Source: a virus
Lineage: Duplodnaviria; Heunggongvirae; Uroviricota; Caudoviricetes
IMG/VR virus record: IMGVR_UViG_2675903278_000002
Length of the DNA: 64,000 nt
Direction: 5' to 3' (one strand)
Part shown: positions 2,363-41,620 of the stretch, piece by piece
How positions within the stretch are numbered: position 1 is the first letter of the stretch
How the letters are laid out: every line of letters starts with the position of its first letter
Program-made: the position numbers and the translations under genes
Notes under the pieces: model-generated
Seen by the model: the letters and a program-made list of their open reading frames with translations, nothing else
Databases searched by the model: none
Told to the model about the DNA's origin: nothing

Positions 2363-3505
2363 ATGTCATATTCAACGTTCCGTTTGGGTGCTAATGATGC
2401 AACCAAAGAGCCTATGTTCCTCGGACAATCTGTCAACGTGGCACGTTACGATCAGCAAAAATACCGTGATTTTGAAAAGTTGATTGAACGTCAATTGTCT
2501 TTCTTCTGGCGGCCGGAAGAAGTTGATATTTCGAGCGATCGTATCGACTTCAACACGAAGCTGCGGGACCACGAACGTCACATTTTTCTGAGCAATCTCC
2601 GTTATCAAACGTTACTCGATTCAGTTCAGGGACGTAGTCCAAATGCAACGCTGCTGCCGCTTATCTCTATTCCTGAACTGGAAACGTGGGTTGAAACGTG
2701 GTCTTTCTCTGAGACTATCCATAGCCGCAGCTACACCCACATTATTCGTGGCATGGTGGACGATCCGAGCATTGTTTTTGACGGTATTGTTACGGATGAA
2801 GAAATCATCAACCGAGCGATCAGTATCTCTGCTGAATATGACAGGCTTTATGGGATGACCTGCGAGCGCCAGTCGTTAGGTGAGAAGGAATTTGAGCGTC
2901 TGTACGTAAATGAATATGGCTGGGAGCCATACCCTTTGCACCGTCAGCTTTTCCGCACGTTGGTGTCCATTAATGCGCTTGAGGCGATCCGTTTCTATGT
3001 AAGTTTTGCATGTACGTTTGCCTTTGGCGAACGGAAGTTGCTTGAGGGTAACACCAAAATTATGCGCTTTATTGCCCGTGATGAAGCTCTGCATTGCGAA
3101 GGAACTGAACGCATGATCCGCTTCATGCGTACCGGTCGCGAAGGTTTATTGTGGAAAGAGATTGCTGCTGATGAAGAAAACGTCATTTACGACACCATGA
3201 AATCAGTCGCCGAACAAGAAATGAACTGGGCAGACTATCTCTTCAAAGACGGTTCGATGATTGGTTTAAACGCGGATATTCTCAAAACCTATGTAAAATA
3301 CCGCACCAATCTGGCTATGAATCGTCTTGGCCTGAAGGCTTTATTTCCAGAGGTTACCACCGATCCGCTGGTCTGGATGAACAAGTGGTTGTTAACCGAC
3401 ACACTGCAAATTGCACCACAAGAGGCAGAGCAAAGCACATATCTGGTAGGTCAGATCGATTCTACCGTGGATAAGGCTTCTCTAAGCCAGTTTGCAGACC
3501 TGTAA
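2363..3505 (+). CDS. nrdB: Class Ia ribonucleotide reductase beta subunit
   Basis: Collinear with E. coli NrdB ([41 protein letters not shown]). Shares the leader GGAAAAACACATG. Confidence 0.95.
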
Positions 3506-3582
3506 ACCGATACAAAGCATTATGTGGCCTGGCAACGCTGGGCCACAATGGATCACAAGAATTAAGAAGGAACAAAACTAGC

Positions 3583-4452
3583 ATGAACTTTACCAAACTG
3601 ACTGACCACCTGAAACTTGCCACCGATCGACTCATTGGATTTAAGCCAGAACCATATGAGTTGCATGAAGGCCATGGTGTAGCCACTGAAAGTATTTACA
3701 AGATGGTCGATCAGTTTCATGAACTCTTCCAGCATCCGAGACGCGTTATGCCGACACCAGAGCTGCTTCGTCTCCGTGCAAGCCTGATTCATGAAGAAGC
3801 TGTAGTGGAAGGTATTCCAGCCGCAATGAATGGGGATATTGAGCAACTGCTGGATGCAATGGCCGACTTTTTATACGTTGGTGTTGGTACGATGGTCGCC
3901 ATCAAAGGTGGTATTTCTACCGGCATGACCTATTACACGCAGGAACAGAGCATTGATCGCTTTATGCAGACAATTTTTGTGCCCGGTAACACTGTTTTCG
4001 ATGATATGGCAATGCCATTTCAGGAAGCTCGTGAGGCGTCATGTATGCTCGAAGAGCTGGCAGATAAACTTGAGAACAAGACTGTTAAGGATTCTGAGCT
4101 GATTCAGGAACTGCGCCGTGTCATGAACAAAATCTATGTGGCGTGCATGATGACCTATCGACTGGCTGATTTCCTCGGTATCAATGTAGTCGAGCTGGTT
4201 GGCGAAATTCATCGGTCTAACATGACAAAATTATGGCCTGCTGATGTTGAGGAACGTCGCCAGGCTGTGGCCAACTGCAAATACGACTCTTCAGATCTGG
4301 GATTCCGCCATGCTGATGGCACCGATAAGATGATCGGTTTTCGAATTTCCGATGGAAAGATTCTGAAGTCTCCAACCTATAGTGATGTCGATTTATCCTC
4401 CTTTGTTGAGCAAGCTAAAGCCTCAGCAATGTACGGAATGATCAAAAAATAA
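3583..4452 (+). CDS. MazG-like all-alpha NTP pyrophosphohydrolase (tandem-domain)
   Basis: EExxE...D metal-binding pattern (LIHEEAVVEG...EQLLDAMADFLYV) and C-terminal EIHRSNMTKL typical of the MazG/HisE-like family. SD GAAGGA lies upstream. Confidence 0.5.
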   Translation: MNFTKLTDHLKLATDRLIGFKPEPYELHEGHGVATESIYKMVDQFHELFQHPRRVMPTPELLRLRASLIHEEAVVEGIPAAMNGDIEQLLDAMADFLYVGVGTMVAIKGGISTGMTYYTQEQSIDRFMQTIFVPGNTVFDDMAMPFQEAREASCMLEELADKLENKTVKDSELIQELRRVMNKIYVACMMTYRLADFLGINVVELVGEIHRSNMTKLWPADVEERRQAVANCKYDSSDLGFRHADGTDKMIGFRISDGKILKSPTYSDVDLSSFVEQAKASAMYGMIKK

Positions 4453-4454
4453 TT

Positions 4455-4471
4455 GTAGGTAGTTATCTATC
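4455..4471. promoter_or_regulatory. Box B palindrome-family copy (degenerate)
   Basis: GTAGGTAGTTATCTATC, 3 nt after the stop codon. Same core as the copy at 45037. Confidence 0.45.
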
Positions 4472-4515
4472 TGTGTATATTGCGTTGGCGCGTTAAATTT
4501 CTGAAACAACTATTC

Positions 4516-4548
4516 GTTTTTGGTGGCCTATGGCCACCATTTTTTTAT
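4516..4548 (+). terminator. Rho-independent terminator
   Basis: TGGTGGCC-tat-GGCCACCA followed by TTTTTTT. Confidence 0.8.
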
Positions 4549-4591
4549 CTGTCTGGTCTTGTTCTCTCAATAAATGTAAACTCACGCAATG

Positions 4592-4609
4592 AATAAGTGG
4601 TTACTTATC
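4592..4609. promoter_or_regulatory. Box B palindrome copy
   Basis: AATAAGTggTTACTTATC, 15 nt upstream of the thyA GTG start. Confidence 0.55.
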
Positions 4610-4623
4610 TTTGTGAGGTTTTT

Positions 4624-5727
4624 GTGTCACTCCTTTTGAATCGTGAGCATACGAACGGTCAGGTAACAAACGCATCGTATGCAAAAGTTATTGAGACGGT
4701 GCTTAAAAGCGGCGTGCAGGCTGATGATCGCACAGGCACTGGTACTTTAAGCACCTGCTACGTTCCCTCTTACTACATGCTTACTGGTGGGACTGTGCCG
4801 CTTATTTCTGGAAAGGCGGTAAATCTTAAGCCACTGCTTGTCGAACTTGAGTGGTATCTGAAAGGCACGGGCAACATCCAATTTCTCAAGGATAACGGCG
4901 TTAAGATTTGGGATGCATGGGCCGATGAGAATGGCGATTTGGGGCCGGTTTACGGTAAGCAGTGGCGTCGATGGGAAGATACCCGCATCGTGAGCCATAG
5001 TGAATATCTGAGCAAGATCGCTACTTTCCGTGAACGCGGGTACAAAGTCGAGGGATACCTGGGTATCAGTGAAGATCGCGTAGTGCTGTCCCGTGAAATC
5101 GATCAGCTACAGCGTATTGTCGATACACTGCGCACGAACCCTACCGATCGTCGCATCATGCTTAACGCATGGAACGTAGGCGAGCTTGAGGATATGAAAC
5201 TGCCACCTTGCCACTTTGTCTTCTCTTTGTGGAGTCGTGAGCTGGATTTTGAAACCCGTTTAACGATGGCAACTGACATTGGTCTTCAACACAGTCGCCT
5301 CGGTTATGAGTCTATCTACACCAAGATGCTATACGATCTGGAGATGGACGGCAGTGTTACTGAAACTGAACTGGATGAACTTGGAATCCCCAAACGCATC
5401 CTCAACTCCTGCCTCGTACAGCGTAGCGTAGACACTTTTGTTGGTATGCCATTCAATATTGCTGGCTATGGCATTCTCACTCATTTTCTCGCGAAGATTA
5501 CGGGTCACATGGCCGGTGCATTTGTGCATTTTGGCTTTGACGTGCATTTATACAATAACCACATGGAAAGTGTGTGTGAGCTAATGAAACGACAGGCTCC
5601 AGAGCATTCAGATCCGGTCGTTATTTTCCCTCATGAATGGTCTGAGCTGGATGATTTCAAATGGGACGATATTCTGATTCTTGGCTATGACCCTCTACCG
5701 TGGATCAAGGTTCCAGTGGCGGTGTGA
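4624..5727 (+). CDS. thyA: Thymidylate synthase homologue with two large insertions
   Basis: Motifs DRTGTGT, WADENGDLGPVYGKQWR, LPPCH, QRSVD, PFNIAGY and DVHLYNNH are present. I moved the start to GTG 4624, which has GAGG 5 nt upstream (the track starts at 4597, inside Box B). Confidence 0.85.
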   Translation: MSLLLNREHTNGQVTNASYAKVIETVLKSGVQADDRTGTGTLSTCYVPSYYMLTGGTVPLISGKAVNLKPLLVELEWYLKGTGNIQFLKDNGVKIWDAWADENGDLGPVYGKQWRRWEDTRIVSHSEYLSKIATFRERGYKVEGYLGISEDRVVLSREIDQLQRIVDTLRTNPTDRRIMLNAWNVGELEDMKLPPCHFVFSLWSRELDFETRLTMATDIGLQHSRLGYESIYTKMLYDLEMDGSVTETELDELGIPKRILNSCLVQRSVDTFVGMPFNIAGYGILTHFLAKITGHMAGAFVHFGFDVHLYNNHMESVCELMKRQAPEHSDPVVIFPHEWSELDDFKWDDILILGYDPLPWIKVPVAV

Positions 5728-5728
5728 T

Positions 5729-6142
5729 ATGGCAAGAGGTATGTATGTCTTATGCGAAATTGAAGGTGTGCTGGCAAATGCCAGCCATCGTAAATCAGTA
5801 TCTGACGCGGATGCAGGCCAGCTCATTGCCGGTGATGAACTCATTTTCCCCACCAGCCGTATGTTGCGTGGTTTTGCTCGCTCAGGGGCTGAAGTGGTGC
5901 TTATCAGTAGCCGCTCTGAAACTCTTGAAGCGCCAACTAAACGATGGCTGAAAGATTTTGGCGTTGATTATGACTGGCTTCATCTCGTACCGAATGGCAC
6001 CAGTTATGAGAAGCATATTAAGCGCACATTAGCGGAGCATAAAGGCGATCTGCTTATCGCTGCGCTGGTGCACGATCCTCGACTCCGTGCCGCTTTAGCC
6101 GACTCTCACCATCGACCGGTCATCTATGAGGTGAGCAAATGA
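5729..6142 (+). CDS. Hypothetical protein (possibly HAD-like fold, non-canonical motif I)
   Basis: ATG lies 2 nt after the thyA stop, and the stop overlaps the folA start (ATGA). MYVLCEIEGVLAN sits where HAD motif I would be but lacks DxD. Confidence 0.45.
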   Translation: MARGMYVLCEIEGVLANASHRKSVSDADAGQLIAGDELIFPTSRMLRGFARSGAEVVLISSRSETLEAPTKRWLKDFGVDYDWLHLVPNGTSYEKHIKRTLAEHKGDLLIAALVHDPRLRAALADSHHRPVIYEVSK

Positions 6143-6615
6143 AGATGATCGCTGCTGTTGGCCGTAACTATGAGATCGGCATAGCGAATGAACTCCCCTG
6201 GCGTTGTTCTACCGATCTGAAGCTATTTAAGAGACTCACCAAAAACGCCACTGTCGTTATGGGGCGTAAAACGATGGAAAGTCTCAAACGCCCTCTTCCA
6301 GAGCGTCATAACCTCGTTTTGACGCGCTCTCATGGCTTTGTACCAAATGGATTCTACCCTGCTGGTGTGGATGATGTGTTGCGATTACCAGAGCCTGTGT
6401 GGGTGATTGGCGGGGAACAAATTTACTCGCTATTCATGCCGCATGTTGAAGAGATTTGGCTCTCCCACATCGGCGTTGATGTGCCAAACGCCGATGCATT
6501 CTTCCCGGCAAGCATGATGCGTAATTTAGGCTTTGTGCCTGTTGAAACAGCTTATACCCAACGAGCCAGCGAGGAAGAGCCTGGCTTTTCGCAGATCGTA
6601 TACAGAAGGTCGTAA
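6139..6615 (+). CDS. folA: Dihydrofolate reductase
   Basis: 158 aa. Motifs IAAVGRNYEIG..LPW, VVMGRKT.ES...PLP.R.N.VLT and VIGG..IY are collinear with E. coli FolA. Confidence 0.9.
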   Translation: MKMIAAVGRNYEIGIANELPWRCSTDLKLFKRLTKNATVVMGRKTMESLKRPLPERHNLVLTRSHGFVPNGFYPAGVDDVLRLPEPVWVIGGEQIYSLFMPHVEEIWLSHIGVDVPNADAFFPASMMRNLGFVPVETAYTQRASEEEPGFSQIVYRRS

Positions 6616-7259
6616 TGGATTACCGGATTGGGATCACTGGTGCTCAGGGCAGTGGGAAAACAACCCTGGCTAAATATATCGACAAACATTACGGAATCCC
6701 TTACGTGGATGCTGGTGTCGGAAGTTTGATGAGCCGCCTCGGTGTTCGAGTAGGTGATTCTATGCCTCTATATGAGCGGCTTCAGATTCAAATGGAAATA
6801 GCAAAGCATATAGAGCTACTTACGCGTGGTGTTGAAGGCTTTGTTATCGATCGCACACCTGCTGATGTTATGGCCTACACGTTGGATTTGGTCGGCCATA
6901 CAAATGAAGATCGGTGTATTGAGTTAGCCCTCGATATCGAAAAGTTTTGCCACAAAACTGCTATTTCAAACTTTAACGCCATTGCTGGCTTACGCCCGGG
7001 AGTCGCTCTCTCAGAGCGAGATTACTTGCGATCACAACGAGCATCATTAGACCGTCTGTATGTCGCTCGTATTGATGCGTTGATGTGCGGGGAACTGACA
7101 AAAATTCACCTGCATCCGCAAAGGGGAGATCTGCAAACCTTCGTCGTTTCCAACCGATATCGCACGGTTGAAGCAAGAGCCAGATCAGTGATGAGAATGC
7201 TAGATAACGCTGTAGAAAAGATAGAAAACCGGTTCTGTGGCCGAGTGACCGTTCATTAG
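6615..7259 (+). CDS. P-loop NTPase, nucleotide-kinase-like
   Basis: Walker A GITGAQGSGKTT at the N-terminus. TAATG coupling to folA. The module context suggests a (d)NMP kinase. Confidence 0.45.
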   Translation: MDYRIGITGAQGSGKTTLAKYIDKHYGIPYVDAGVGSLMSRLGVRVGDSMPLYERLQIQMEIAKHIELLTRGVEGFVIDRTPADVMAYTLDLVGHTNEDRCIELALDIEKFCHKTAISNFNAIAGLRPGVALSERDYLRSQRASLDRLYVARIDALMCGELTKIHLHPQRGDLQTFVVSNRYRTVEARARSVMRMLDNAVEKIENRFCGRVTVH

Positions 7260-7320
7260 AAATTGTTCGCCTCTTCGACATTGCGACAATAAAACTCTCA
7301 AAATGGGTTAAGGATAAAAA

Positions 7321-7740
7321 ATGTTTAGTGAAATGTTGCTTGAAGATGAACTGGATCGGAAAACAACAGAGGCTTTGATTCGTGTAGCGGACGAACATTC
7401 CCGGTCGCTTATGAGCGATCGAGAGGCTCGTCTGGCTATTCGTGCCATATTCGAAACTGCGCAGGGGCTTGTTGGTACACAAGTGGGTGAAGCCATTAAC
7501 ATCGCCATGTCTCAGTTCAGTGAAGGCAGTAAAAAGCCTCTGTTTCCTATGCATTTGATGCTGGCTGGTGGCTCGGTGCTTTATATCTCTGTTTGTCTGG
7601 ATAGCAACCAAATCAATATTCTCAACACTGTGTCAGGTAAGTGGAAAGATCCGATTGTCTGTGAAACCAGTGAAGAAACTTTGAAAAAAGCGGCTCAATT
7701 TGTACGTAGCGCACTACTTAAGGGCGCTAAGAAGTTGTAA
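7321..7740 (+). CDS. Hypothetical protein
   Basis: 139-aa ORF with SD AAGGA upstream. No recognisable motif. Confidence 0.5.
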   Translation: MFSEMLLEDELDRKTTEALIRVADEHSRSLMSDREARLAIRAIFETAQGLVGTQVGEAINIAMSQFSEGSKKPLFPMHLMLAGGSVLYISVCLDSNQINILNTVSGKWKDPIVCETSEETLKKAAQFVRSALLKGAKKL

Positions 7741-7749
7741 GGAGTTCTG

Positions 7750-8307
7750 ATGACAACGATTGTTGCAGGCATCGATATCGAGTCTACGGGACTGGATTTC
7801 CTTGCTGGTCATAAAATTATTGAAATCGCAATTACCCGCTATGAACTGGAGACACAGAGACATATTGATAGTCTGGAGATGCGTTTTAACCCTCGCAGAA
7901 ACATAGATCCGAAAGCTCAAGCCGTTCATGGCATTTCATTGGAACAGCTCGCAGCTGAACCTTTGTTGTCAAATCATGCCAGCGAAATTGGCGCTTATAT
8001 GGGGGCATGTAGTGTGTGGGTTGCTCATAACGGCGAAGCATTTGATATACCATTTATTCGACACGAGTTTTCAGGGTATGGAGTAAGACTGCCAGAAGTT
8101 CCTGTTATAGATACTATGTTATCGGGATTGTGGGCCACAGAAGACGGTAAACGTCCCCGCCTTGAAGAGTTGGCCTTCTCTCTTGGCTTTATATACGATC
8201 ATGCCAAAGCACATAGTGCCTTATATGACACAAACTTAATGATGCAATGCTTCTTTAAGGCACGTAATAAGTACGGATTTTTTAAATTACCCTCTGAAAT
8301 TGTGTAA
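7750..8307 (+). CDS. DnaQ/DEDDh-type 3'-5' exonuclease
   Basis: Exo I GIDIESTGLD, Exo II VAHNGEAFDIPFI, Exo III HSALYDT. Confidence 0.8.
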   Translation: MTTIVAGIDIESTGLDFLAGHKIIEIAITRYELETQRHIDSLEMRFNPRRNIDPKAQAVHGISLEQLAAEPLLSNHASEIGAYMGACSVWVAHNGEAFDIPFIRHEFSGYGVRLPEVPVIDTMLSGLWATEDGKRPRLEELAFSLGFIYDHAKAHSALYDTNLMMQCFFKARNKYGFFKLPSEIV

Positions 8308-8312
8308 AACAA

Positions 8313-8349
8313 AAGCCTACTTTAAAAAGTTTAAAGTAGGCTTTCTTTT
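8313..8349 (+). terminator. Rho-independent terminator
   Basis: 13-bp stem AAGCCTACTTTAA/TTAAAGTAGGCTT followed by tctttt. Confidence 0.7.
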
Positions 8350-8465
8350 AAAGAACAGTCGCCTTTCAATCATTTCCTGCCTGTATTTAATACTTTTCCG
8401 CCTGATAGGTTTAGTCAAAATGTAGCCATCGAAACGCAAATGTAACCAAACAGAAGGAGACTTAC

Positions 8466-9275
8466 ATGAGTTCGGTTGAAAATGTAATGACAAATGATGA
8501 TCTGGACGAGCTGACAGCCATGTTGCAATCACTTGATGAACCAGTAAAAAAAGCTGCACAGGTTGAAAATACTGATGATATTGACGATCTGCTGCTCGGC
8601 CTAGATGCTGGCGTAGCCATGAGTTCTGATGATGTTGCCGAAGAACTGTTCAATGAAGAAAAAGCAGGTGATTTCAGCTCTGCTTTAAATGAGTTGGAGT
8701 TAGCGCATGAGCCTATAAACGTAATTAACGCTGAAAGTGTTGAAGCTGCCGAAAACGAGCCAGAACAATTGGGATTTATTGAGGTTGAAGAGTGTGTTGA
8801 GGTTAATGATGAATTAAAAGTTCAACAGTCAAATGATAGCAATACAAATAAAAAAGCTCGTGCTGCAAGAGGTCCTCGTTTTACTTTAAGTGATAAAGAT
8901 GATTCGTTTTTCAATAAAGCGGGCTTAGAAAAAGATATTTTCTTAGACGCTTACGATAACGCGCCTGTCAAAGCAAAGGATAAGATATTAAACCTTCTTA
9001 ATTGGTTTAGCGGAGGTCCAGATATTAGTGTTTACACGGTAATTTCCATGAGACACCTTCTCACAGAAAAGAAGGCTACAAGTAATAGTATTAAGATTGC
9101 TTTAATGAGCAATCCAGAAAAACCGTATCCGCTTAACACTGCGTCAACTCAGGCTGGGCAAATGATGGCTGTATTTCCAGCGACAGGAATTGCCGTTAGA
9201 GGCGGTGGAAATCTAACATTGAACGAAGAATCACCGATCGTTAAGAAGTTTGTCGCGGAGTACACTATTGGATGA
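8466..9275 (+). CDS. Hypothetical protein with strongly acidic N-terminal half
   Basis: SD AAGGAG upstream. The first ~125 aa are D/E-rich (ENTDDIDDLLLGLD, SSDDVAEELFNEE). Confidence 0.55.
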   Translation: MSSVENVMTNDDLDELTAMLQSLDEPVKKAAQVENTDDIDDLLLGLDAGVAMSSDDVAEELFNEEKAGDFSSALNELELAHEPINVINAESVEAAENEPEQLGFIEVEECVEVNDELKVQQSNDSNTNKKARAARGPRFTLSDKDDSFFNKAGLEKDIFLDAYDNAPVKAKDKILNLLNWFSGGPDISVYTVISMRHLLTEKKATSNSIKIALMSNPEKPYPLNTASTQAGQMMAVFPATGIAVRGGGNLTLNEESPIVKKFVAEYTIG

Positions 9276-9350
9276 CGTTCCCCTACTGAAAATAAAGCCC
9301 ATAGAGAGCTTTATAGTGCTGGGTAAGCCAATCACATACCCAGCACCACA

Positions 9351-9398
9351 AAAACGCGCCAGAGAGCTTCTCGTTTGCATTTCTGGCGCGTTTTATTT
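9351..9398 (+). terminator. Probable terminator
   Basis: CGCGCCAGA...TCTGGCGCG (9-bp stem, 18-nt loop) followed by TTTTATTT. Confidence 0.5.
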
Positions 9399-9427
9399 GA
9401 TTGCCAGACATAAAATCAAATGCAAAA

Positions 9428-9448
9428 ATAGGTATTTACTTACCTATC
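9428..9448. promoter_or_regulatory. Box B palindrome copy
   Basis: ATAGGTAtttacTTACCTATC, 11 nt upstream of the methylase ATG. Confidence 0.55.
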
Positions 9449-9458
9449 GAGAAAGAAG

Positions 9459-10052
9459 ATGATTGCAGCCGAAAAAATCAAACAGCGAAAGCGCGACAAC
9501 TCTCTTCGTGACCTCTGGAGAACACCTGACTGGCTGTTTTCTGCCATTCAACGTTATCTTGGAGTGACATTTGATGTTGACGTTGCCTGCAACAAGGACA
9601 ATGCAAAGCTGCCTAATTTCATAGGCGTTGAGCGTGATGCTTTGAAATCTGAATGGGGACAGCCAGGTACAATTGCCTTCCTCAATCCACCCTACTCCAA
9701 AATCTCCCCCTGGATTGATGCGGCTATACGTGAGCAGGCTCGCGGAGTTACAACAGTGATGCTAATTCCTCAATCCCTAGATACAAAGTGGTATGAGCGT
9801 GCAACAGAGTGTGCGAATGAGACGATTATTCTGTCTGGTGGCCGCGTAGCGTTTGTCGAGCCTGACGTCAATCTGGGTCAGGTAGAAGTAAACATCAACC
9901 CAGGTGGCAGTATGCTCGTTGTTTTTCGAGGATTCTGTCAGGACGCTGGGCACTCTATAAGCAAGATCCCTTTGGACGTCATGAAAAGTCTGGGAGGGTA
10001 TGATCCTGCGAATGTGATCAGGAAAAAAAGACCATCAAAGAAGGCTGCTTAG
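9459..10052 (+). CDS. Phage-type DNA N6-adenine methyltransferase (Dam-like)
   Basis: WRTPDWLF near the N-terminus and LNPPYS catalytic motif. The size and layout match the phage Dam family. Confidence 0.8.
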   Translation: MIAAEKIKQRKRDNSLRDLWRTPDWLFSAIQRYLGVTFDVDVACNKDNAKLPNFIGVERDALKSEWGQPGTIAFLNPPYSKISPWIDAAIREQARGVTTVMLIPQSLDTKWYERATECANETIILSGGRVAFVEPDVNLGQVEVNINPGGSMLVVFRGFCQDAGHSISKIPLDVMKSLGGYDPANVIRKKRPSKKAA

Positions 10053-10073
10053 TTTGTTCTGGCGTCTGTAATT

Positions 10074-10157
10074 AGCCTGCTTCTGTATATATAAATAACT
10101 ACATATTAATTATTAATATACGGAAGCAGGCTGTTTTGTATCAGAGACTCCAGACCT
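10074..10157. repeat. Long AT-rich hairpin element, copy A (second copy at 39559-39637)
   Basis: AGCCTGCTTCtGTATATATAAATAA...TTATTAATATACgGAAGCAGGCT followed by gttttgt. The downstream CCAGACCT is also conserved. Confidence 0.65.
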
Positions 10158-10237
10158 GAACATCACTACAGAATCCACTAGAACCCCTTCCCAGACGCTT
10201 TAAAATCGATTTTATGAATCACTTTAAGGAAACTAAC

Positions 10238-26099: not shown

Positions 26100-26870
26100 A
26101 AATATCAATAGGTTATGGTTGTTTATACAAATAAGAAAACAACTAAATAACAGATCAACGAAACGTCAACGCTTTCACCCGATTTGGTCTAAAAAATTGA
26201 CGTTTTCACACATCACTTCTTATACCCGTAACTCTACGCAGCAGACATCGCCACAGCGTCCAATTTTCACCACAGACGACCCAACACACTACCAACAAAA
26301 ACACACGCTCAAAATCGCTCCCGTTGCGTTACACAACCATATAAACAACTTATTTTCAGGCATAACAAAACAACTAAATAACACACATGCCATTTCCAAA
26401 AACAACCAACCTCTTTATGGCAGGCTACCGAAAAGACCCACCTCTTCTCCCCAGGCTACCGGACAACCAACCTAACTTTCACAGGCAATCCGAAAACATT
26501 CATACGCGCGATACCCACGACACGCCATTACCCAAACAGCGAAGAAACACCAGAATCACTGAACCCCCAACGAAGCCTGTAACCGCAAGGCTTCTCTCAA
26601 TCCCAAAAGACACGAAACAGAACAATCACGGGAAACGCCATTACCCAACACACGAATAACTACAAAAGCCCTTCACGCACTCCAGACAAACAACTCAAAC
26701 ACAATAACGAAAGGAATCGCCCACCTGCCATTACTCCATACACGGAGAAGAACAATCACCAAAACGACGAGAACACCCCATAGAAGAACCACCGCAAAAC
26801 GAACGAAACCACATACACCGACAGAGAGAACAACACACCCAATTCACCAACAGAATTAGTCGCCGTATAG
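26100..26870 (+). other. A+C-skewed, G/T-poor non-coding tract
   Basis: By hand count, about 100 G in 780 nt, and 70-80% A+C in the lines I counted. Track ORFs here translate to low-complexity T/P/Q/N/H sequence. Confidence 0.6.
26421..26510 (+). repeat. Three tandem ~30-bp repeats (CAGGCTACCGnAnAAnCCnACCT...)
   Basis: Units start at 26421, 26452 and 26482. A related triplet lies at 30416-30500. Confidence 0.6.
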
Positions 26871-29894: not shown

Positions 29895-29901
29895 TTATTA
29901 A

Positions 29902-29921
29902 GGCCACCAGCATTGGTGGTC
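29902..29921 (+). terminator. Conserved GGCCACCA/TGGTGG hairpin (no U-tract)
   Basis: The context ATTAAGGCCACCAgcatTGGTGGtCTTAAATGAC is nearly identical to that at 30367-30400. Confidence 0.45.
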
Positions 29922-30049
29922 TTAAATGACTTTTAATAACCGAAGGTTAGTTTGAAACCTGGCTATCAACTTCCAGAACCTTTCTTGTGTATTCAGCCTG
30001 TATTAACTTCTTTTATGCCTTATCTACACTGCGATAATTACACCAACAA

Positions 30050-30365: not shown

Positions 30366-30370
30366 AGATT

Positions 30371-30394
30371 AAGGCCACCAATGCTGGTGGCCTT
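30371..30394 (+). terminator. Conserved hairpin (perfect 10-bp stem, no U-tract)
   Basis: AAGGCCACCA-atgc-TGGTGGCCTT. Confidence 0.45.
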
Positions 30395-30415
30395 AAATGA
30401 CCATCCTGTTTCCCG

Positions 30416-30500
30416 CAGGCTAAAAACACCAACCTCTTACCTCCAGGCAACCGACAAACCCACCTGTTCCCGTCCGGCTACCGCAACTTTCCACTTTGAC
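30416..30500 (+). repeat. Three tandem ~29-bp repeats related to those at 26421-26510
   Basis: CAGGCTAAAAACACCAACCT.., CAGGCAACCGACAAACCCACCT.., CCGGCTACCGCAACTTTCCAC. Units start at 30416, 30444 and 30474. Confidence 0.55.
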
Positions 30501-31099: not shown

Positions 31100-31180
31100 C
31101 GCAGGGAAATTTTCAGAAACGGCGAGGAACGTATTCATAAGCCGACGGGAAACGGCCAGGATTTTTTCGGGAAACGGCTG
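31100..31180 (+). repeat. Second iteron-like set (GGGAAACGGC family)
   Basis: GCAGGGAAAT, CAGAAACGGCG, CGGGAAACGGCC and CGGGAAACGGCTG. The last two are 22 bp apart. Confidence 0.55.
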
Positions 31181-31279
31181 CATTCGCCTTTATGTAGAAA
31201 AAAACATCGGGAAGCTGGTGGAATCCAACCAGCGGTTGTCGGACAGGCGAGCGGGGAAAATTATGATGACTTTCGTCGC

Positions 31280-31593: not shown

Positions 31594-31664
31594 AAAAAAC
31601 GCGCCATCATTGGCGCGCTATGGTGGGAGTATTGGAAACGAAAAAAGCGCCCATAGTGGGCGCT
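31594..31664 (-). terminator. Tandem rho-independent terminators for the minus-strand module
   Basis: Read on the minus strand: AGCGCCCA-cta-TGGGCGCT+TTTTTT, then CGCGCCA-atga-TGGCGCG+TTTTTT. Confidence 0.8.
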
Positions 31665-32125: not shown

Positions 32126-32173
32126 TTTTAAAGCTCCTTTAAAGCGCCCACTATGGGCGCTTGATTCCATTAA

Positions 32174-36325: not shown

Positions 36326-36345
36326 ATAAGTAAGTGATTACTTAG
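36326..36345. promoter_or_regulatory. Box B palindrome copy in the divergent helicase/ParB-like intergenic region
   Basis: ATAAGTAAgtgaTTACTTAG. Confidence 0.55.
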
Positions 36346-36362
36346 TGGATTGTAGCAATAAA

Positions 36363-37043
36363 ATGGATGTAAAAATCACGATTTTGCAGGTTGATGTTGC
36401 CAACCTTCGCCCGAATACCTGGAACACCAATTCGGTTGGTGCGCAGAATTTTGAAAAACTGAAAGGTTCTATCGAAAAATTGGGCTTTTTTAAGCCAATT
36501 TTGGCTCGTGAACTTGAAGATGGATTTTTTGAAATCCTCGGCGGTGAACATCGCTGGCGTGCTGCTATTGAGCAAGGAATTTCAACGGTTCCGGTGCTTT
36601 CTGTGGGCAAAATTAGCGATGTCGTAGCTAAACAGATGTCACTGGTGGACAACGAGCGATACGGTGAAGACGACCAAATCGCATTGCAACGCTTCATTGA
36701 AGAAATTCAGTCAGAACTTGACTATCAACTGTCTGAAATCGCCCCGTATGACGACGAAATCTCGATGGTTTTAGCAAAAGAGGCGGCAATCGACCTTGAA
36801 GCACTGGAGGCGTTGTCTCGTGGTAGTGATGAGCCTGTCGATACCGACAAACGAGAGAAAACCGAACGTGTGGGTGCGGAACATCAGACCATGCGCTTCA
36901 AAGTAACTTTCGATGCGTCAGATCGTGTTGCAGAAACCATAAAAAACATCATCAAAGAGCAGGCTATTAACACCGGTAATGAAATGGAGAACGCTGGTGA
37001 GGCTCTGGTGTGGCTGGTCGACTACTACAAGGAGCGTATGTAA
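36363..37043 (+). CDS. ParB/Srx-fold (ParB N-terminal domain) protein 1
   Basis: PILARELEDGFFEILGGEHRWRAA carries the GxxHR ParB box. The start is either ATG 36363 or GTG 36345. Confidence 0.7.
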   Translation: MDVKITILQVDVANLRPNTWNTNSVGAQNFEKLKGSIEKLGFFKPILARELEDGFFEILGGEHRWRAAIEQGISTVPVLSVGKISDVVAKQMSLVDNERYGEDDQIALQRFIEEIQSELDYQLSEIAPYDDEISMVLAKEAAIDLEALEALSRGSDEPVDTDKREKTERVGAEHQTMRFKVTFDASDRVAETIKNIIKEQAINTGNEMENAGEALVWLVDYYKERM

Positions 37044-37711
37044 TGACCAAAAAGTTTGAAATCGTATATCGCGACCCGGCAGATCTTATTCCCTATGAGA
37101 TGAATGCCAAAAAGCATGATGAACAGCAGATCAGAGATTTGGCCGCAGCCATTAAAAAGCGCGGATTTGACCAGCCAATTACGGTCGATAAGAACGACGT
37201 AATTATTACTGGCCACGGCCGCCGTGAGGCTGCAATTTTTGCTGGACTTGAGCGCGTACCGGTTATTGTTCGTGATGATCTGAGTGATGACGAGGTTCGT
37301 GCGAAGCGCCTTGAAGATAACCGACTTGCCAGCATTGATTACGATGCAATTAAGCTACAGAAAGAGCTTGAGTCGCTTGTTCTGGACGATATTGAGGTTT
37401 TCGGCTTTGAAGAGCGTGAGTTGAATGTTCTCGTTGGCAGTATGACAGAAGAAATGGACACCGACTCGCTAGTTATCGATCTTGGCGAAGAAACTAAACG
37501 ACAGAAGGATGAACACACCGAGATCAGTCGTGAAGTTGCAGCGGAAGAAGTACGTGTTGTCGACGTATTGGGCTTTAAAACGCTCCCTGCTGGCTCTGCC
37601 ATTGTTGTTGGTGATTTGCTTGCCCATATGGAAGAAATGACGGGAGAAAGCGGGGTAGACGCATTTGTGGCATATGCGGAGAAGATCTCTTCCGGGGAGA
37701 TGGCTGCATGA
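37043..37711 (+). CDS. ParB-like nuclease-domain protein 2
   Basis: TAATG coupling with AAGGAG upstream. Motifs QPITVDKNDVIITGHGRREAA and VPVIV. Confidence 0.7.
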   Translation: MTKKFEIVYRDPADLIPYEMNAKKHDEQQIRDLAAAIKKRGFDQPITVDKNDVIITGHGRREAAIFAGLERVPVIVRDDLSDDEVRAKRLEDNRLASIDYDAIKLQKELESLVLDDIEVFGFEERELNVLVGSMTEEMDTDSLVIDLGEETKRQKDEHTEISREVAAEEVRVVDVLGFKTLPAGSAIVVGDLLAHMEEMTGESGVDAFVAYAEKISSGEMAA

Positions 37712-38373
37712 GCAAATACATCATCAACGTATCGTTTCAGACACGCGTAAATAAAACCACGCGCACGTTGGAAATCGCTGAGTCGTTCGGGCTTGGCCTG
37801 GACGAAAAAGAGTGGACGCTTTACGACAATCTGGAGCTGGAAGTGAAGCAGGGCGATGTGGTGTACATCACCGGCCAATCCGGTTCCGGCAAATCCGTTG
37901 TGCTGCGCGAGTTGCAACGACAGATGAAGGATGAAGGGCTGTCTGTAGCCTCCATCGATGATTTTACCTTCGATAATGAGGTTAACGTCATCGATCAGTT
38001 GGGCAAAACGACCAGTGATGCGCTTGGGTTGTTATCTATGGCTGGTCTGAACGATGCATATCTGTTTGTTCGCAAGCCTTCTGAAATGTCAGACGGCCAG
38101 AAATATCGTCTCAAGATTGCCAAACTGATTGAGTCAGGCGCTAAAGTATGGGCTGCTGACGAGTTCGGCGCTGTTCTCGACCGTGTAACCGCTCAGGTTG
38201 TGGCGTCTAACCTCCAGCGTGCCGCTCGAAAGGTTGGTGCGACGGTAATGGTGGCGACGACTCACGAAGACCTGAAGAACGCGCTGCGCCCTGATATGCA
38301 GATCACCAAGCACTACAAAGAACGCGTGAAGGTGGAATATCACAATGGTAGTCATGATGAGGTCCATTCATGA
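37708..38373 (+). CDS. Soluble ABC-type ATPase
   Basis: Walker A GQSGSGKS, signature MSDGQKYR, Walker B VWAADEF, H-loop TTHE. ATGA overlap with the upstream gene. Confidence 0.75.
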   Translation: MSKYIINVSFQTRVNKTTRTLEIAESFGLGLDEKEWTLYDNLELEVKQGDVVYITGQSGSGKSVVLRELQRQMKDEGLSVASIDDFTFDNEVNVIDQLGKTTSDALGLLSMAGLNDAYLFVRKPSEMSDGQKYRLKIAKLIESGAKVWAADEFGAVLDRVTAQVVASNLQRAARKVGATVMVATTHEDLKNALRPDMQITKHYKERVKVEYHNGSHDEVHS

Positions 38374-39260
38374 CGGACATCATCATTAAACGCTACCGCC
38401 CTGAAGAGTTTCCGCGTCATCTGGACTTTCTGGAGCGAATGACTGTTACAAAGGGAACTGTAGAGGACTGGCACGCTCTTAAGTCGCTTCACTACAAAAC
38501 AGACGGCAAACCTTTCGCGCCAACTTACTATCGCTGCGAACTTGATGACCGTCTGGTGGGCGTCGTGGTTATGGCTTACCCGAAACTACTGTTGGCACCT
38601 CGCCACCGCATGTTTCCTAAGTTGAAACCAACCACTAATACCACCGTGGCTAACCAGTACTGGGGTCGGTACGTGAATAACAACTTTGCGGTGATCAGTC
38701 GCTCAGTTGTGGATACTCAGTATCGTGGCGTAGGCGTCTCTTATAGAATGATTAACCTGGTTAGCAGGATGCATGACCGGCCAATCATTGAGATCCAGTC
38801 CTCGATGAGCAAATACAATCCCTTCGCCATGAAAGCAGGGTTTAAGTTCATCCGCCCTGAGCGACCGAAGAGCTATGAAAGTGCACTGCGTGTGTTCCAG
38901 CGCCATTTCCGCTCCGACCCGGGTGATAACGAGGCGATCGTCAAAGAGTTGTTCGCTATGAGCGAGTCTCGTCGTCGCCGTGCGCTGCGCGATTTGGTGG
39001 CGGACTACCATAAGAACAGTTCCCTGGCAAAAGCTGGGCGGAATCGTGGCACGACGATTCAGGACATTGCCGACAGTCTGGTGGACGAGGCCAGCATTGT
39101 GAAGCTGCTCAAGGACATTCACAACCTGAGCTTTACGTCTCCGTTGTATGGTGTGTACCGAAACCCTGACTTTGGCCGTCGACTGCCTGACACGCTGCCA
39201 CTGCTGGCATTCGACAAACAACCTTTGGATAAACCGTTAGAAATTGCTTTACCGGCATAA
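38370..39260 (+). CDS. Hypothetical protein with GNAT-like acetyltransferase core
   Basis: ATGA overlap with the upstream gene. VDTQYRGVGVSYRMI resembles GNAT motif A (Q/RxxGxG/A). Confidence 0.45.
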   Translation: MTDIIIKRYRPEEFPRHLDFLERMTVTKGTVEDWHALKSLHYKTDGKPFAPTYYRCELDDRLVGVVVMAYPKLLLAPRHRMFPKLKPTTNTTVANQYWGRYVNNNFAVISRSVVDTQYRGVGVSYRMINLVSRMHDRPIIEIQSSMSKYNPFAMKAGFKFIRPERPKSYESALRVFQRHFRSDPGDNEAIVKELFAMSESRRRRALRDLVADYHKNSSLAKAGRNRGTTIQDIADSLVDEASIVKLLKDIHNLSFTSPLYGVYRNPDFGRRLPDTLPLLAFDKQPLDKPLEIALPA

Positions 39261-39269
39261 GGATTTGCC

Positions 39270-39536
39270 ATGACGTTAACCGACAAACAAAAGGACATCA
39301 TCAAAACGCTCAATCTCGGTTATGAGCGAGGTCATCTACTTGACCTGGACGAATTGCTTGAAGTTTTGCCGTACAAGACAACCAAGCAAAGTATCCAGTT
39401 CTCAATTCGCGCTCTGATAAAAAAGGGGCTGGTGGAGAAAGGGCATACGCGCCAACGCAGTGACAATCGCTATCACCGCCGGACTCTTGGGTTAACCACT
39501 TTAGGTCGAGCCAAAGCGAAGTTACTGGTGATGTAA
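39270..39536 (+). CDS. Small winged-helix (MarR-like) DNA-binding protein
   Basis: 88 aa, with TKQSIQFSIRALIKKGLVEK. Confidence 0.5.
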   Translation: MTLTDKQKDIIKTLNLGYERGHLLDLDELLEVLPYKTTKQSIQFSIRALIKKGLVEKGHTRQRSDNRYHRRTLGLTTLGRAKAKLLVM

Positions 39537-39558
39537 TCGGTCTGGGAGCTTATTTAAA

Positions 39559-39637
39559 GACCTGCATCTGTATATATAAATAATAAGTAACTTATTAAAT
39601 ATATACGGAAGCAGGCTTCGTAAGACATGCCAGACCT
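39559..39637. repeat. Long AT-rich hairpin element, copy B
   Basis: GACCTGCATCTGTATATATAAATAATAAGT-a-ACTTATTAAATATATACGGAAGCAGGCT, plus the conserved CCAGACCT. The centre contains a Box B-like AATAAGTAACTTATT. Confidence 0.65.
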
Positions 39638-39651
39638 AATTAAACACCCCA

Positions 39652-39666
39652 GAAAACAAGTTGGTT
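39652..39666. promoter_or_regulatory. Box A palindrome copy (degenerate)
   Basis: GAAAACAAGTTGGTT. Confidence 0.5.
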
Positions 39667-39676
39667 AGCAGATGCA

Positions 39677-39692
39677 GTAAACAAGTTGTTTT
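39677..39692. promoter_or_regulatory. Box A palindrome copy
   Basis: GTAAACAAGTTGTTTT, 39 nt upstream of the terS ATG. Confidence 0.6.
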
Positions 39693-39721
39693 AGAGCGCA
39701 TGGACGCGCTCTGTGTGTTTT
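39693..39721 (+). terminator. Leader hairpin upstream of the packaging operon (terminator-like)
   Basis: AGAGCGC-atggac-GCGCTCT followed by gtgtgTTTT. The U-tract is not contiguous with the stem. Confidence 0.4.
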
Positions 39722-39731
39722 AGAGGGATCT

Positions 39732-40364
39732 ATGACGGTCGAAAAAGACGAGGTAAAAACTCGCCTGACACCAGCGGAGTGGGCCGAAGCTGAAGCCAAA
39801 TGGACGTCAGGCGAATATACACTCTCAAAGCTGGAGGAAGAGTACGGCATTCGTCGTGAAACACTCTCCAGACATTTCAAAAAGCGAGGATTAGAGAAAG
39901 GCGCGGACTCTGTTGGGAAGATGGTTCGTGAGTCTCTTAAATCTGACGCAGAGCTTCGCGCTAAAGCCCGTGCGGAAAAGATAGAAGAACGTCGTACACG
40001 TTATGACGGCTGGGCGTATGCGTTGGGGCAGATGGTGATGGTCGAAGTCACTACGGCCAAACGTGAGGGTAAGCCTTTAGGGGCGATTGAGGATTCTCTC
40101 AAGAGCTTACAGAGAGCCAGTAATACCCTTGCAAAATGCTTTGAAGTTTCGTCCAAAGCATTGGGCATGGATCATGCGGAAAATGACGAGGAAGAAATTC
40201 CGAACCTGGTATTTGGTGAGCTTACGCCTTCCCAGGTGGCGAAATTACGTCAGGAAGACGACGAGCCTGAAATCATCGATGACGAATTGCTTGAGACGTT
40301 GGAAGAAGAAGCTCTAAGCGAATTTGATGCGACAGATGATGGAAGTGAAGGGGAGGACGAATAA
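39732..40364 (+). CDS. Terminase small subunit (putative)
   Basis: Lies immediately upstream of, and is ATGA/TAATG-coupled to, the large subunit. N-terminal HTH-like LSKLEEEYGIRRETLSRHFKKRG and an acidic C-terminus. Confidence 0.65.
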   Translation: MTVEKDEVKTRLTPAEWAEAEAKWTSGEYTLSKLEEEYGIRRETLSRHFKKRGLEKGADSVGKMVRESLKSDAELRAKARAEKIEERRTRYDGWAYALGQMVMVEVTTAKREGKPLGAIEDSLKSLQRASNTLAKCFEVSSKALGMDHAENDEEEIPNLVFGELTPSQVAKLRQEDDEPEIIDDELLETLEEEALSEFDATDDGSEGEDE

Positions 40365-41620
40365 TGGCAATCCCGTCCTCGCTCAGTCTTGTGCAACTGC
40401 ATTCTGGACAGATGAAAGTCTTCCAGTCTCCGCATCGATTTAAAGTTGTTTGTGCTGGTCGACGCTGGGGAAAATCCCGGTTGTCGATCTCCACTATTAT
40501 TCGTGCGGCGGCAAAGGAAAAAAAGCAAAGAGTCTGGTATGTCGCTCCTACTTACCAGATGGCTCGCCAGATTTTGTGGGACGATCTACAGGAAGTTCTG
40601 CCTCGTAAGTGGGTTAGGAAAAAGAACGACACCACGATGACAATCGTGTTGAAGAACGGTTCGGAGATCGCCCTCAAAGGTGCTGATAAGCCTGACACTC
40701 TGCGCGGCGTAGCGTTGCATTTTGTAGTGCTTGATGAATTTCAGGATATGAAGGCTGACACCTGGTACAAGGTGTTACGACCTACTCTTTCATCGACACG
40801 CGGCGGTGCACTGATCATTGGTACGCCAAAAGGCTTCTCGGAATTTCACAAACTGTGGACTATAGGCCAGAACGTAGAGCTGCAAACAAAGGGACAGTGG
40901 AAGAGCTGGCAGTTTGTAACTGCCGATTCTCCGTTTGTACCTACGGCGGAAATTGAAGCTGCTAAGAACGATATGGACCCGAAATCGTTCGCTCAGGAGT
41001 ACCTGGCGAGCTTTGAGAACATGTCCGGGCGCGTTTACTACCCGTTCGATCGTAACGTGCATGTAAAACCGCTTCAGTTCAACCCTCGGTTGCCTATATG
41101 GGTAGGGCAGGACTTCAACATTGACCCGATGTCTTCAGTAATTTTGCAACCTCAGCCAAATGGTGAGCTATGGGCAATTGATGAATTGGTGCTCTTTTCC
41201 TCTAACACGGCAGAGGTTTGTGATGAGCTTGAGAGACGCTTCTGGCGCTGGAAATCACAGATAACGGTATTTCCAGATCCGGCAGGTGCTTATCGCCAAC
41301 ATGCTCGCGGGGAGTCTGACGTCGACATATTCAAAGAGAAGGGATTCTTACGTGTCGATTATTCGAAAAAGCACCCGCCAATTGCGGATCGTGTTAATGC
41401 TGTTAACCGAATGCTGATGACCGCATCTGGAGATATCCGGCTGTATATCGATCCGAAGTGCAAGCATTTGATTGATTCACTGGAAAAAGTCATCTACAAG
41501 CCTGGAACACGAGATATGGATAAGACAGGTGGCATTGAGCATAGTGCAGACGCATTGGGCTATCCAGTACATCGTAGGTATCCAGTCAAAAACCGTGTTA
41601 TTCTTGGTGGTTCTCGATAG
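40364..41620 (+). CDS. Terminase large subunit
   Basis: Walker A-like VCAGRRWGKS, Walker B HFVVLDEFQD, and a C-terminal nuclease-type DPAG region. Confidence 0.85.
   Translation: MAIPSSLSLVQLHSGQMKVFQSPHRFKVVCAGRRWGKSRLSISTIIRAAAKEKKQRVWYVAPTYQMARQILWDDLQEVLPRKWVRKKNDTTMTIVLKNGSEIALKGADKPDTLRGVALHFVVLDEFQDMKADTWYKVLRPTLSSTRGGALIIGTPKGFSEFHKLWTIGQNVELQTKGQWKSWQFVTADSPFVPTAEIEAAKNDMDPKSFAQEYLASFENMSGRVYYPFDRNVHVKPLQFNPRLPIWVGQDFNIDPMSSVILQPQPNGELWAIDELVLFSSNTAEVCDELERRFWRWKSQITVFPDPAGAYRQHARGESDVDIFKEKGFLRVDYSKKHPPIADRVNAVNRMLMTASGDIRLYIDPKCKHLIDSLEKVIYKPGTRDMDKTGGIEHSADALGYPVHRRYPVKNRVILGGSR

Follow-up and report, generated by a model that had tools for sequence, protein, structure and literature searches.

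The DNA analysed here, referred to throughout as the window, is a 64,000-nucleotide (nt) stretch of the virus record IMGVR_UViG_2675903278_000002, and it belongs to an SSU5-like phage-plasmid of E. coli that is 98-99% identical to Cyrano/pLF82. Phage-plasmids of this group are common in clinical Enterobacteriaceae and are carriers of resistance genes; to our knowledge almost nothing has been established about their cis-acting signals, be these promoters, terminators, the lytic origin or the packaging site. The subject of this study is a family of long hairpin-forming elements, of which two copies, A and B, lie in the window, each directly after a gene on the same strand. The genes and the inner hairpins at the two sites are the following.

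9459-10052, + strand: gene for a Dam-family N6-adenine methyltransferase (Pfam PF05869, E = 2.5e-38); its stop codon, 10050-10052, abuts copy A.
10074-10132, + strand: inner hairpin of copy A, with arms AGCCTGCTTCTGTATAT / ATATACGGAAGCAGGCT and one T.G pair.
39270-39536, + strand: gene for an 88-amino-acid (88-aa) protein, phrog_900, with weak matches to regulators of winged helix-turn-helix (wHTH) type; its stop codon abuts copy B.
39559-39617, + strand: inner hairpin of copy B, without a T-run 3' of the hairpin.
39732-40364, + strand: gene for the small terminase (terS) or a DNA-binding protein, 3' of copy B; labelled terminase small subunit in Cyrano.
40364-41620, + strand: terL, directly after terS.

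In agreement with a preliminary description of the window, inspection of the sequence placed the two copies at 10074-10132 and 39559-39617, and a repeat search (10076-10132 against 39561-39617) returned them in direct orientation, 29,485 bp apart, with 81% identity over 57 nt. The gene context given in that description was borne out at copy A, where Pfam confirms the Dam-family assignment, and for the distance from copy B to the small terminase gene, which measures 114 nt (about 115 nt had been claimed). Copy B does lie directly after the 88-aa gene, the wHTH label of which is backed by weak matches only. Around copy A the window matches Escherichia phage CMS-2020a and Cyrano (pLF82) at 98-99% identity; around copy B the identity is 99.7% to CMS-2020a and 77-79% to SSU5-type records from Klebsiella and Salmonella.

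In exact form the arms are confined to these two sites of the window. The right arm ATATACGGAAGCAGGCT occurs exactly only at A and B, and its complement is the left arm of A with one mismatch; with up to three mismatches allowed there are four matches, against 0.16 expected. The left-arm pattern CTGTATATATAAATAA is likewise found exactly only at copies A and B. Folded as DNA, copy A reaches -16.6 kcal/mol (z-score, z, of -8.4) and copy B -14.0 kcal/mol (z -5.4), and in each case none of 200 shuffled sequences folded as well. The left clamp of B has two mismatches and B is therefore a weaker hairpin than A. The pattern TATAAATA in the left arm was considered as a T4-type late promoter and rejected; it occurs only inside the two hairpins in the whole 64 kb.

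The elements are larger than first reported. Longer RNA folds reveal nested imperfect palindromes of about 100-115 nt, the parts of which are listed here.

10052-10161, + strand: full nested palindrome of copy A (RNA fold of 10045-10165, -41.6 kcal/mol, z -6.7).
10142-10161, + strand: 3' strand of the outer helix of copy A, which holds CCAGACCT and pairs with 10052-10068 (TTTG.TTCTGG.GTCTG) by both fold and duplex search.
39539-39636, + strand: full nested palindrome of copy B (RNA fold of 39530-39645, -44.2 kcal/mol, z -8.1).

They share one anatomy, in which an outer helix of 7-17 bp is followed inwards by an internal loop, then by a GC clamp of 10-15 bp and, in the middle, by the AT-rich core. 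In the RNA folds the outer helix of A pairs TTCTGG.GTCTG (10057-10068) with CAGAGAC.CCAGA (10142-10154), and that of B pairs GGTCTGG (39539-39545) with CCAGACC (39630-39636). Across relatives the flanks of A and B form an outer duplex that is much better than that of shuffled flanks, and which reaches 17 bp in the Salmonella-type copy A. This pairing accounts for the sequence CCAGACCT, described earlier as a conserved box about 18 nt after both copies. It is indeed present after both, at 10150-10157 and 39630-39637, and the gap is 18 nt at A; at B it is 13 nt, and the 8-mer has two further occurrences in the window, hence it is not rare by itself. It is not a separate box but the 3' half of the outer helix. 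For the same reason a bipartite promoter composed of the right arm and CCCAGAC was rejected, the box being the 3' strand of the outer helix and the spacing varying from 11 to 30 nt.

The palindromes of A and B contain bulges and mismatches. Palindromy reaches the exact centre, and the base at that point is free to vary (AAGTNACTT). On the 3' side of each hairpin there is a cluster of short CCAGA(A/C)C-like repeats. The element at A begins at the last base of the methylase stop codon and that at B 3 nt past the stop of the 88-aa gene, which ends at 39536.

A scan of the whole Cyrano sequence for further copies, which the preliminary description had proposed for the rest of the replicon, yielded a third, copy C, at Cyrano 31157-31213, a position about 6.8 kb past the right end of the window. 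The arms of copy C, GACCTGCTTCTGTATATA / TATATACAGAAGCAGGTC, are perfectly complementary and it forms the same nested fold with an outer helix as A and B. As RNA the inner hairpins of A, B and C fold at -29.8, -29.2 and -34.7 kcal/mol, respectively, with z from -6.3 to -8.7. In Cyrano, copy C comes after ParA, ParE-like and DUF2971 genes and before a hypothetical gene, which is followed by helicase and primase genes. All three elements start 0-5 nt past a + strand stop codon and end 77-96 nt ahead of the next + strand gene. According to the Cyrano annotation the replicon is about 108 kb long with nearly all genes on one strand, encodes a T4-like set of recombination and replication genes, and has the plasmid RepA gene about 17-29 kb from each of the three copies. 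The three junctions separate a structural/lysis block, a replication/nucleotide-metabolism block and an accessory block, the genes all being co-oriented. In a blastn search of the phage collection the element was found in SSU5-type records only, typically in three places per record.

For comparison among relatives, about 240 SSU5-like loci were gathered from a viral-contig collection by protein-anchored searches, giving 76 neighbourhoods for B, 80 for A and 80 for C; the Escherichia, Salmonella and K. pneumoniae types referred to below are replicon types set by named phage records. The element is present in nearly all loci searched, at the same positions, and all three copies occur in complete 100-114 kb contigs of several lineages. 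It had been held that a lack of further conservation in relatives would tell against the element; instead the sites are syntenic across the approximately 240 loci. Replicons of the Escherichia, Salmonella and K. pneumoniae types share an arm core, CCTGCTTCCGTATA/TATACGGAAGCAGG, with hardly any variation, and their flanks diverge freely. What variation there is in the arms is confined to a few pairs, as at position 9, where C-G was seen 26 times, T-A 11, T.G 48 and C.A 13.

More distant lineages have arms that differ in sequence and yet remain complementary. The E. coli type has GCCTGCTTCCGTATA/TATACGGAAGCAGGC, the Xenorhabdus copy A GCCTTGCTCCCATA/TATGGGAGCAAGGC, locus L159 AGCCGTGTTCC/GGAGCACGGCT and the K. 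michiganensis copy B GCCTGGTTCTG/CGGAGCCAGGC; the Moellerella copy B has GTTCCCAT/ATGGGAAC around a core of about 100 nt. Fold z-scores in the distant lineages lie between -4 and -10. Covariation extends to the outer helix, with GGTCTGGGAG/CTCCCAGACC replaced by CCGCAGTG/CACTGCGG in Xenorhabdus and L159. It is these distant lineages that supply the evidence for covariation; RNAalifold applied to 38 copies from close lineages recovered the GC clamp only and almost no covariation, because the arms are nearly invariant there. The core ranges from 25 to about 100 nt in length and can be inverted, and such variation suits a stem-loop more than a rigid protein site. Of the two arms the right is the more conserved, and it persists where the left has decayed (Xenorhabdus B and the A copies of loci L151-L157). 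A two-arm pattern scan of the collection, meant to reveal the other copies in the Xenorhabdus-type contig (locus L158), detected copy A only, and the B copy there was located via the TerS homologue. Since A and B of Xenorhabdus share the lineage-specific right arm TATGGGAGCAAGGC, the copies within one genome evolve in concert.

A search of the whole window against Rfam 15 gave no match at gathering thresholds, and on the hairpins only sub-threshold hits to generic microRNA precursors. No earlier description of the element was found in searches of the SSU5 and pHCM2 literature. As far as that literature shows, therefore, this is a real and conserved family of elements that has apparently gone undescribed and has no Rfam match. 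The palindromes of the T5 injection-stop region are unrelated to it.

Exchange between copies is visible. In some E. coli plasmids the C core is identical to the B core, and the C core is found in both orientations (the B core has one orientation in 15 of 15 variants); gene conversion and inversion through the arms thus do happen. Copy C also marks a mosaic junction: in 293 of 2346 locus pairs its flanks differ by less than 2% on one side and by more than 8% on the other, against 0 and 12 pairs in the within-side controls. The effect is weak at copy B (13 pairs against 0 and 0), and the same test at copy A gave no effect. In loci L162-L241 copy C borders a hypervariable plasmid-like region, with at least 20 different upstream flanks. 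The mosaicism at C fits the border between a variable plasmid-like region and a conserved core, and by itself implies no dedicated recombination site.

Similar hairpins are found beyond the phage-plasmids. Pseudomonas phage nickie is a lytic phage of 112 kb with the same gene order, and has long hairpins at positions equivalent to B (about 7188-7292) and C (41058-41134). The two are paralogous and share core and inner-arm motifs with each other, and their inner arms, TTTCCCTAT/ATAGGGAA, resemble the enterobacterial arms. The annotation of nickie lists no integrase and no plasmid replication genes. The run of genes encoding two ParB_N-domain proteins, two ABC-type ATPases, a small protein, TerS and TerL occupies 36345-41620 in the window and 3383-9423 in nickie (NC_042091). 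TerS homologues fused to a ParB_N domain exist (P0067, P0077, P0078), and the "ParB" genes near copy B may belong to packaging and not to partition; the ParB_N-domain proteins score under the NCBIfam partition cut-offs.

The sequence immediately 3' of the hairpins differs between the copies, and in the window two further features are relevant.

10133-10139, + strand: T-run GTTTTGT, directly 3' of the inner hairpin of copy A.
39692-39723, + strand: small GC hairpin with a T-run, terminator-like (stem 39692-39713, tail TGTGTGTTTT), directly before the ribosome-binding site of terS.

Among 18 distinct flank variants of copy A, a T-run of at least four is present in 61%, and the 8 nt after the stem contain 3.9 T on average where about 2 would be expected; the variants of copy C have a mean of 4.2 T in 8 nt and a T-run of at least four in 73%. 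No A-run was found on the 5' side of the hairpins, and a T-run without its mirror image breaks the palindrome on one side, as a + strand terminator requires. Furthermore, a stable GC-rich hairpin lies 3' of a same-strand gene at A, B and C alike (RNA folds and annotation), as is looked for in a terminator. The proposal that the element is a strong bidirectional terminator therefore survives in part: it is terminator-like on the + strand, in the window at A only, and a bidirectional action is not supported, as there are no 5' A-runs and B is without a T-run.

Where the long hairpin lacks a T-run another structure tends to have one. Upstream of terS just one of the two hairpins has a T-run. Among distinct variants of the region from B to terS in E. 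coli-, Salmonella- and K. pneumoniae-type replicons, a T-run of at least four follows the small hairpin in 16 of 17 and never follows hairpin B; the small hairpin is itself conserved with compensatory changes. K. michiganensis has the reverse arrangement, with a T-run on hairpin B and none on the small hairpin, and in Xenorhabdus the small hairpin is missing and hairpin B has a T-run. In loci L151-L157, where the left arm of hairpin A has decayed, a conventional terminator follows directly. It seems that a terminator is selected at these junctions and is often supplied by the long hairpin.

The reading that we favour, tentatively and at somewhat less than even odds, is that the elements are transcript-end or processing hairpins acting at the level of RNA, in which a terminator is nested in a longer stem by analogy with lambda tI/sib. 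With the anatomy, copy number, synteny, compensated divergence and T-run distribution observed as above, we infer that RNA is the active form, and likewise termination and RNase III cleavage. The element would act in the + strand transcript as a transcript-end or processing signal. At A in the window, and at C outside it, the inner hairpin and the U-tract would form an intrinsic terminator; copy A is probably one. In RNA that reads through, the sequence past the U-tract would pair with the sequence upstream of the hairpin, and the resulting duplex of about 35-45 bp with an internal loop would be a plausible RNase III substrate or a stabilising 3' structure. The predicted full structures of A and B exceed the approximately 20 bp of double-stranded RNA with an internal loop that is expected of an RNase III site. 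Copy B would be a version without the U-tract, which in this lineage would not terminate, and it would fall to the small hairpin and T-run at 39692-39723 to end transcripts ahead of the late (terminase) operon. The reading is favoured by the position of the copies right behind + strand stop codons, by arms and outer helices that change in sequence and still pair, by the one-sided T-run and its replacement at terS and at decayed A copies, and by the hairpins of nickie, which speak against a plasmid-specific role. In keeping with an RNA of + sense, wobble pairs compatible with the + strand (G.T) number 140 against 76 for A.C, and for 52 of 80 distinct variants the core is more stable when folded as + strand RNA.

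Several observations weigh against this reading. Of 25 variants of copy A, 15 give the better fold on the minus strand, so that the strand preference is weak and inconsistent, and since G exceeds C on the + strand around the whole replicon, strand-biased C-to-T mutation could by itself yield the surplus of T.G pairs. The variants of copy B average 1.7 T in 8 nt, and none of 19 from E. coli-, Salmonella- and K. pneumoniae-type replicons has a T-run of at least four; no T-run follows either hairpin of nickie, a phage in which ordinary terminators are plentiful. With no T-run at B in this lineage or at the nickie hairpins, termination cannot be the shared core function, nor the only one. The near-invariance of the arms across the three enterobacterial replicon types is a further difficulty; together with the sharing of arms within a genome it suggests a sequence-specific partner or gene conversion, and a plain terminator needs neither. 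Finally, palindromy that reaches the centre, flipping of the core and the nearly equal stability of the two strands are typical marks of palindromes that work as DNA.

The last of these points belongs to an alternative that we regard as doubtful, though less so than the others: that the structures are cruciforms or single-stranded DNA hairpins serving the replication or recombination machinery of the phage. Their partners would be a DnaB-type helicase, primase, UvsX/UvsY/gp32/UvsW-like proteins and SbcCD-like and RuvC-like nucleases, and they would be unwinding or priming sites, or programmed breaks that start recombination-dependent replication. An AT-rich core between GC clamps favours extrusion or unwinding, the two strands hardly differ in how well they fold, the palindrome continues to a centre whose middle base is free, and the inverted C cores and identical B and C cores show that DNA is exchanged through the arms. 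Copy C lies directly upstream of the module of hypothetical gene, helicase and primase in nickie as well as in Cyrano, the CCAGA(A/C)C-like repeats accompany each hairpin, and a T4-like set of recombination and replication genes is encoded. However, a DNA structure leaves unexplained both the one-sided T-run and its complementary distribution with the second terminator, and all the copies stand against a stop codon, in intergenic gaps that are transcribed. In Moellerella and Xenorhabdus the B arms are about 100 nt apart or the left one has decayed, which makes extrusion unlikely, and the Cyrano annotation contains no initiator or HUH-type nickase (a rolling-circle nicking enzyme). The cumulative GC skew climbs monotonically, without an inflection at any of the three copies, and was set aside as uninformative about an origin. 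A broader form of the idea, which we likewise consider unlikely and a shade more so, is that the palindromes are DNA structural sites kept from lytic Pseudomonas phages to enterobacterial phage-plasmids as cis-acting entry points for phage machinery. They could be programmed unwinding or break sites launching T4-style recombination-dependent replication, or they could be loading sites for the ParB_N-domain proteins, the ABC ATPases, the 88-aa protein and terminase; the T-runs could be a secondary adaptation that insulates lysogenic transcription. The arms might also be bound in a sequence-specific manner by a protein. That the arms and the CTCCCAGAC boxes are inverted half-sites for a phage regulator of the three module junctions is improbable in our estimation, the candidates being the 88-aa protein, the TerS-like DNA-binding protein and the ParB_N-domain proteins encoded next to B. 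Arms that are nearly invariant in close lineages, a right arm that outlasts the left (Xenorhabdus B, L151-L157 A), lineage-specific arm variants common to the copies of one genome, and DNA-binding and ParB_N-domain genes that are always just upstream of B, nickie included, would all suit an operator. Gene conversion between copies has occurred and could explain the shared variants, however, and an operator with two half-sites does not need a palindromic core; nor would a fixed dimer tolerate spacings that range from 21 to about 100 bp between the inner arms and from 2 to 20 nt between outer and inner arms.

The position of copy B, 114 nt upstream of terS, raises the question of packaging, and B alone, or with A and C, could be a pac or cos site recognised by the terminase. 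We rate this as decidedly improbable. B is distinct from A and C in having no T-run, a fixed core orientation (15 variants) and the best-conserved outer helix, and a hairpin at its position is kept in the lytic nickie. Position 1 of the records of SSU5 (NC_018843.1 / JQ965645.1) and Cyrano (OV696614.1) falls inside hairpin B, corresponding to 39598 and 39599 of the window, 8-9 nt right of the centre. However, with three hairpin cores per replicon the core by itself does not specify a unique end. Both ends of the SSU5 record join plasmid sequence without a base lost or duplicated, unlike end-repaired cohesive ends, and the PhiR41_1 record opens elsewhere. Among draft contigs there are others that begin within C (L164, L177) or break off shortly before A (L108, L143), so that a technical break caused by a palindrome is no less likely than a physical end. 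The TerL relatives (T5-like, Jersey-like and P74-26) are about 25% identical and predict no packaging mode. End mapping for the phage is not reported in the Cyrano paper, and none is given in the K. pneumoniae p2 and Pfeifer 2022 papers. The remaining suggestion, a site for site-specific recombination or partition (lox, dif or attC-like, a centromere or a telomere-resolution site), is largely refuted and hardly tenable. It draws on the palindromic copies being direct repeats within a plasmid prophage that has genes for an integrase, ParA and ParB_N-domain proteins, and on the strong mosaic junction at copy C (293/2346 pairs); such a junction is expected at any boundary of core and accessory DNA. 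The spacers of 21 to about 100 bp do not suit recombinases, which use half-sites of 11-13 bp around a crossover of 6-8 bp, and all copies are retained with the intervening segments in complete replicons of several lineages. The retention of the B and C hairpins in the lytic nickie, with no annotated integrase or plasmid replication genes, argues against a partition or integrase site. For telomere resolution the palindromes are imperfect and present in three copies, and the Cyrano annotation has no protelomerase; the title of Gilcrease and Casjens (2018), cited in PMC7969092, describes SSU5-like replicons as circular plasmid prophages. An apparent deletion between copies in the 84-kb record ST13-OXA48phi12.3 was discounted, the record being a truncated extraction. 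The recombination site of the preliminary description is hardly likely as a dedicated site, and what can be seen is homologous exchange through the elements, in the identical B and C interiors, the flipped C interior and the mosaic junction at C.

Other repeated motifs and hairpins were noted in the window. One lies between hairpin B and terS.

39654-39691, + strand: two AAACAAGTTG(G/T)TT motifs, of which there are 15 in the window; they set B apart from A.

The complete Cyrano sequence contains 18 copies of the palindromic motif AAACAAnTTGTTT, and the window 15. Those in the window are at 2319, 12541, 13270, 17811, 24679, 24730, 26343, 27538, 27915, 28399, 29302, 30052, 30537, 39654 and 39679, most of them 5-30 nt before a + strand ribosome-binding site, and the motif could serve as an operator, as part of a promoter or as a translational operator. 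Another palindrome, TAGGTAAnTACTTACCTA, is found at 9429, 11644, 16608, 41611, 43119, 55120 and 62035, before the methylase, portal and other genes, and a similar sequence precedes the gene 3' of copy C in Cyrano. Two clusters at 26399-26495 and 30394-30487 each consist of three direct repeats of about 30 nt (ACCnACCT...CAGGCTACCG) and are iteron-like. Short GC-rich palindromes or terminator-like hairpins stand around single genes at 29898-29925 and 30369-30396, at 31640-31664 and 32143-32167, and at 8307-8349; with these ordinary hairpins elsewhere in the window, the phage also uses conventional terminators.

The family is among the best-conserved non-coding features seen in the replicon, and it marks the junctions of three blocks. 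To learn whether its role is in ending or processing transcripts or in starting replication or packaging would open a way to study the insulation of the lysogenic plasmid state from the lytic genes, and would show where modules exchange between SSU5-like replicons. There is also a practical consequence: the palindromes break short-read assemblies, and the starts of SSU5-group records should not be read as physical genome ends.

Among known systems, origin palindromes such as herpes simplex oriS/oriL and cruciform-dependent origins such as pT181 IR-II also place GC-richer inverted arms around an AT-rich centre, occur in more than one copy per genome and have one copy by replication genes. The elements described here differ in that every copy lies at a stop codon and that a skew signal is absent, and an origin would leave the one-sided T-run unexplained. 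The T4-type PeSL cassettes (an early promoter with a stem-loop) and the lambdoid boundary sequences are likewise repeated regulatory stem-loops at module borders and coincide with mosaic junctions, as copy C does; PeSLs, however, are numerous and mobile in hyperplastic regions, whereas the three elements here are fixed in position across genera. Ordinary Rho-independent terminators share the GC-rich base of the stem, the T-run and the upstream gene on the same strand (at A and C, and at B in some lineages). They differ in that the stem here is 2-4 times the usual length, the sequence is common to copies and genera, an outer helix extends beyond the T-run, and B and the nickie hairpins have no T-run.

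The RNase III sites of T7 and T3 (R0.3 to R18.5) are likewise several related hairpins in co-oriented intergenic gaps, built of a lower stem, an internal loop and an upper stem, and conserved among related phages. T7 has about 10 sites with stems of about 20 bp and no AT-only core, against three sites here with predicted stems of 35-45 bp and arms that are near-invariant. The lambda tI/sib region, in which sib is responsible for retroregulation of int, also lies directly after a gene in a temperate phage; there too a terminator hairpin with a U-tract sits inside a longer inverted repeat, whose 3' strand lies beyond the U-tract so that the long duplex forms only in read-through RNA. Unlike tI/sib, the present elements occur as three paralogous and syntenic copies per genome, with stems that are much longer and AT-rich, a copy B without a U-tract, and no similarity in sequence.

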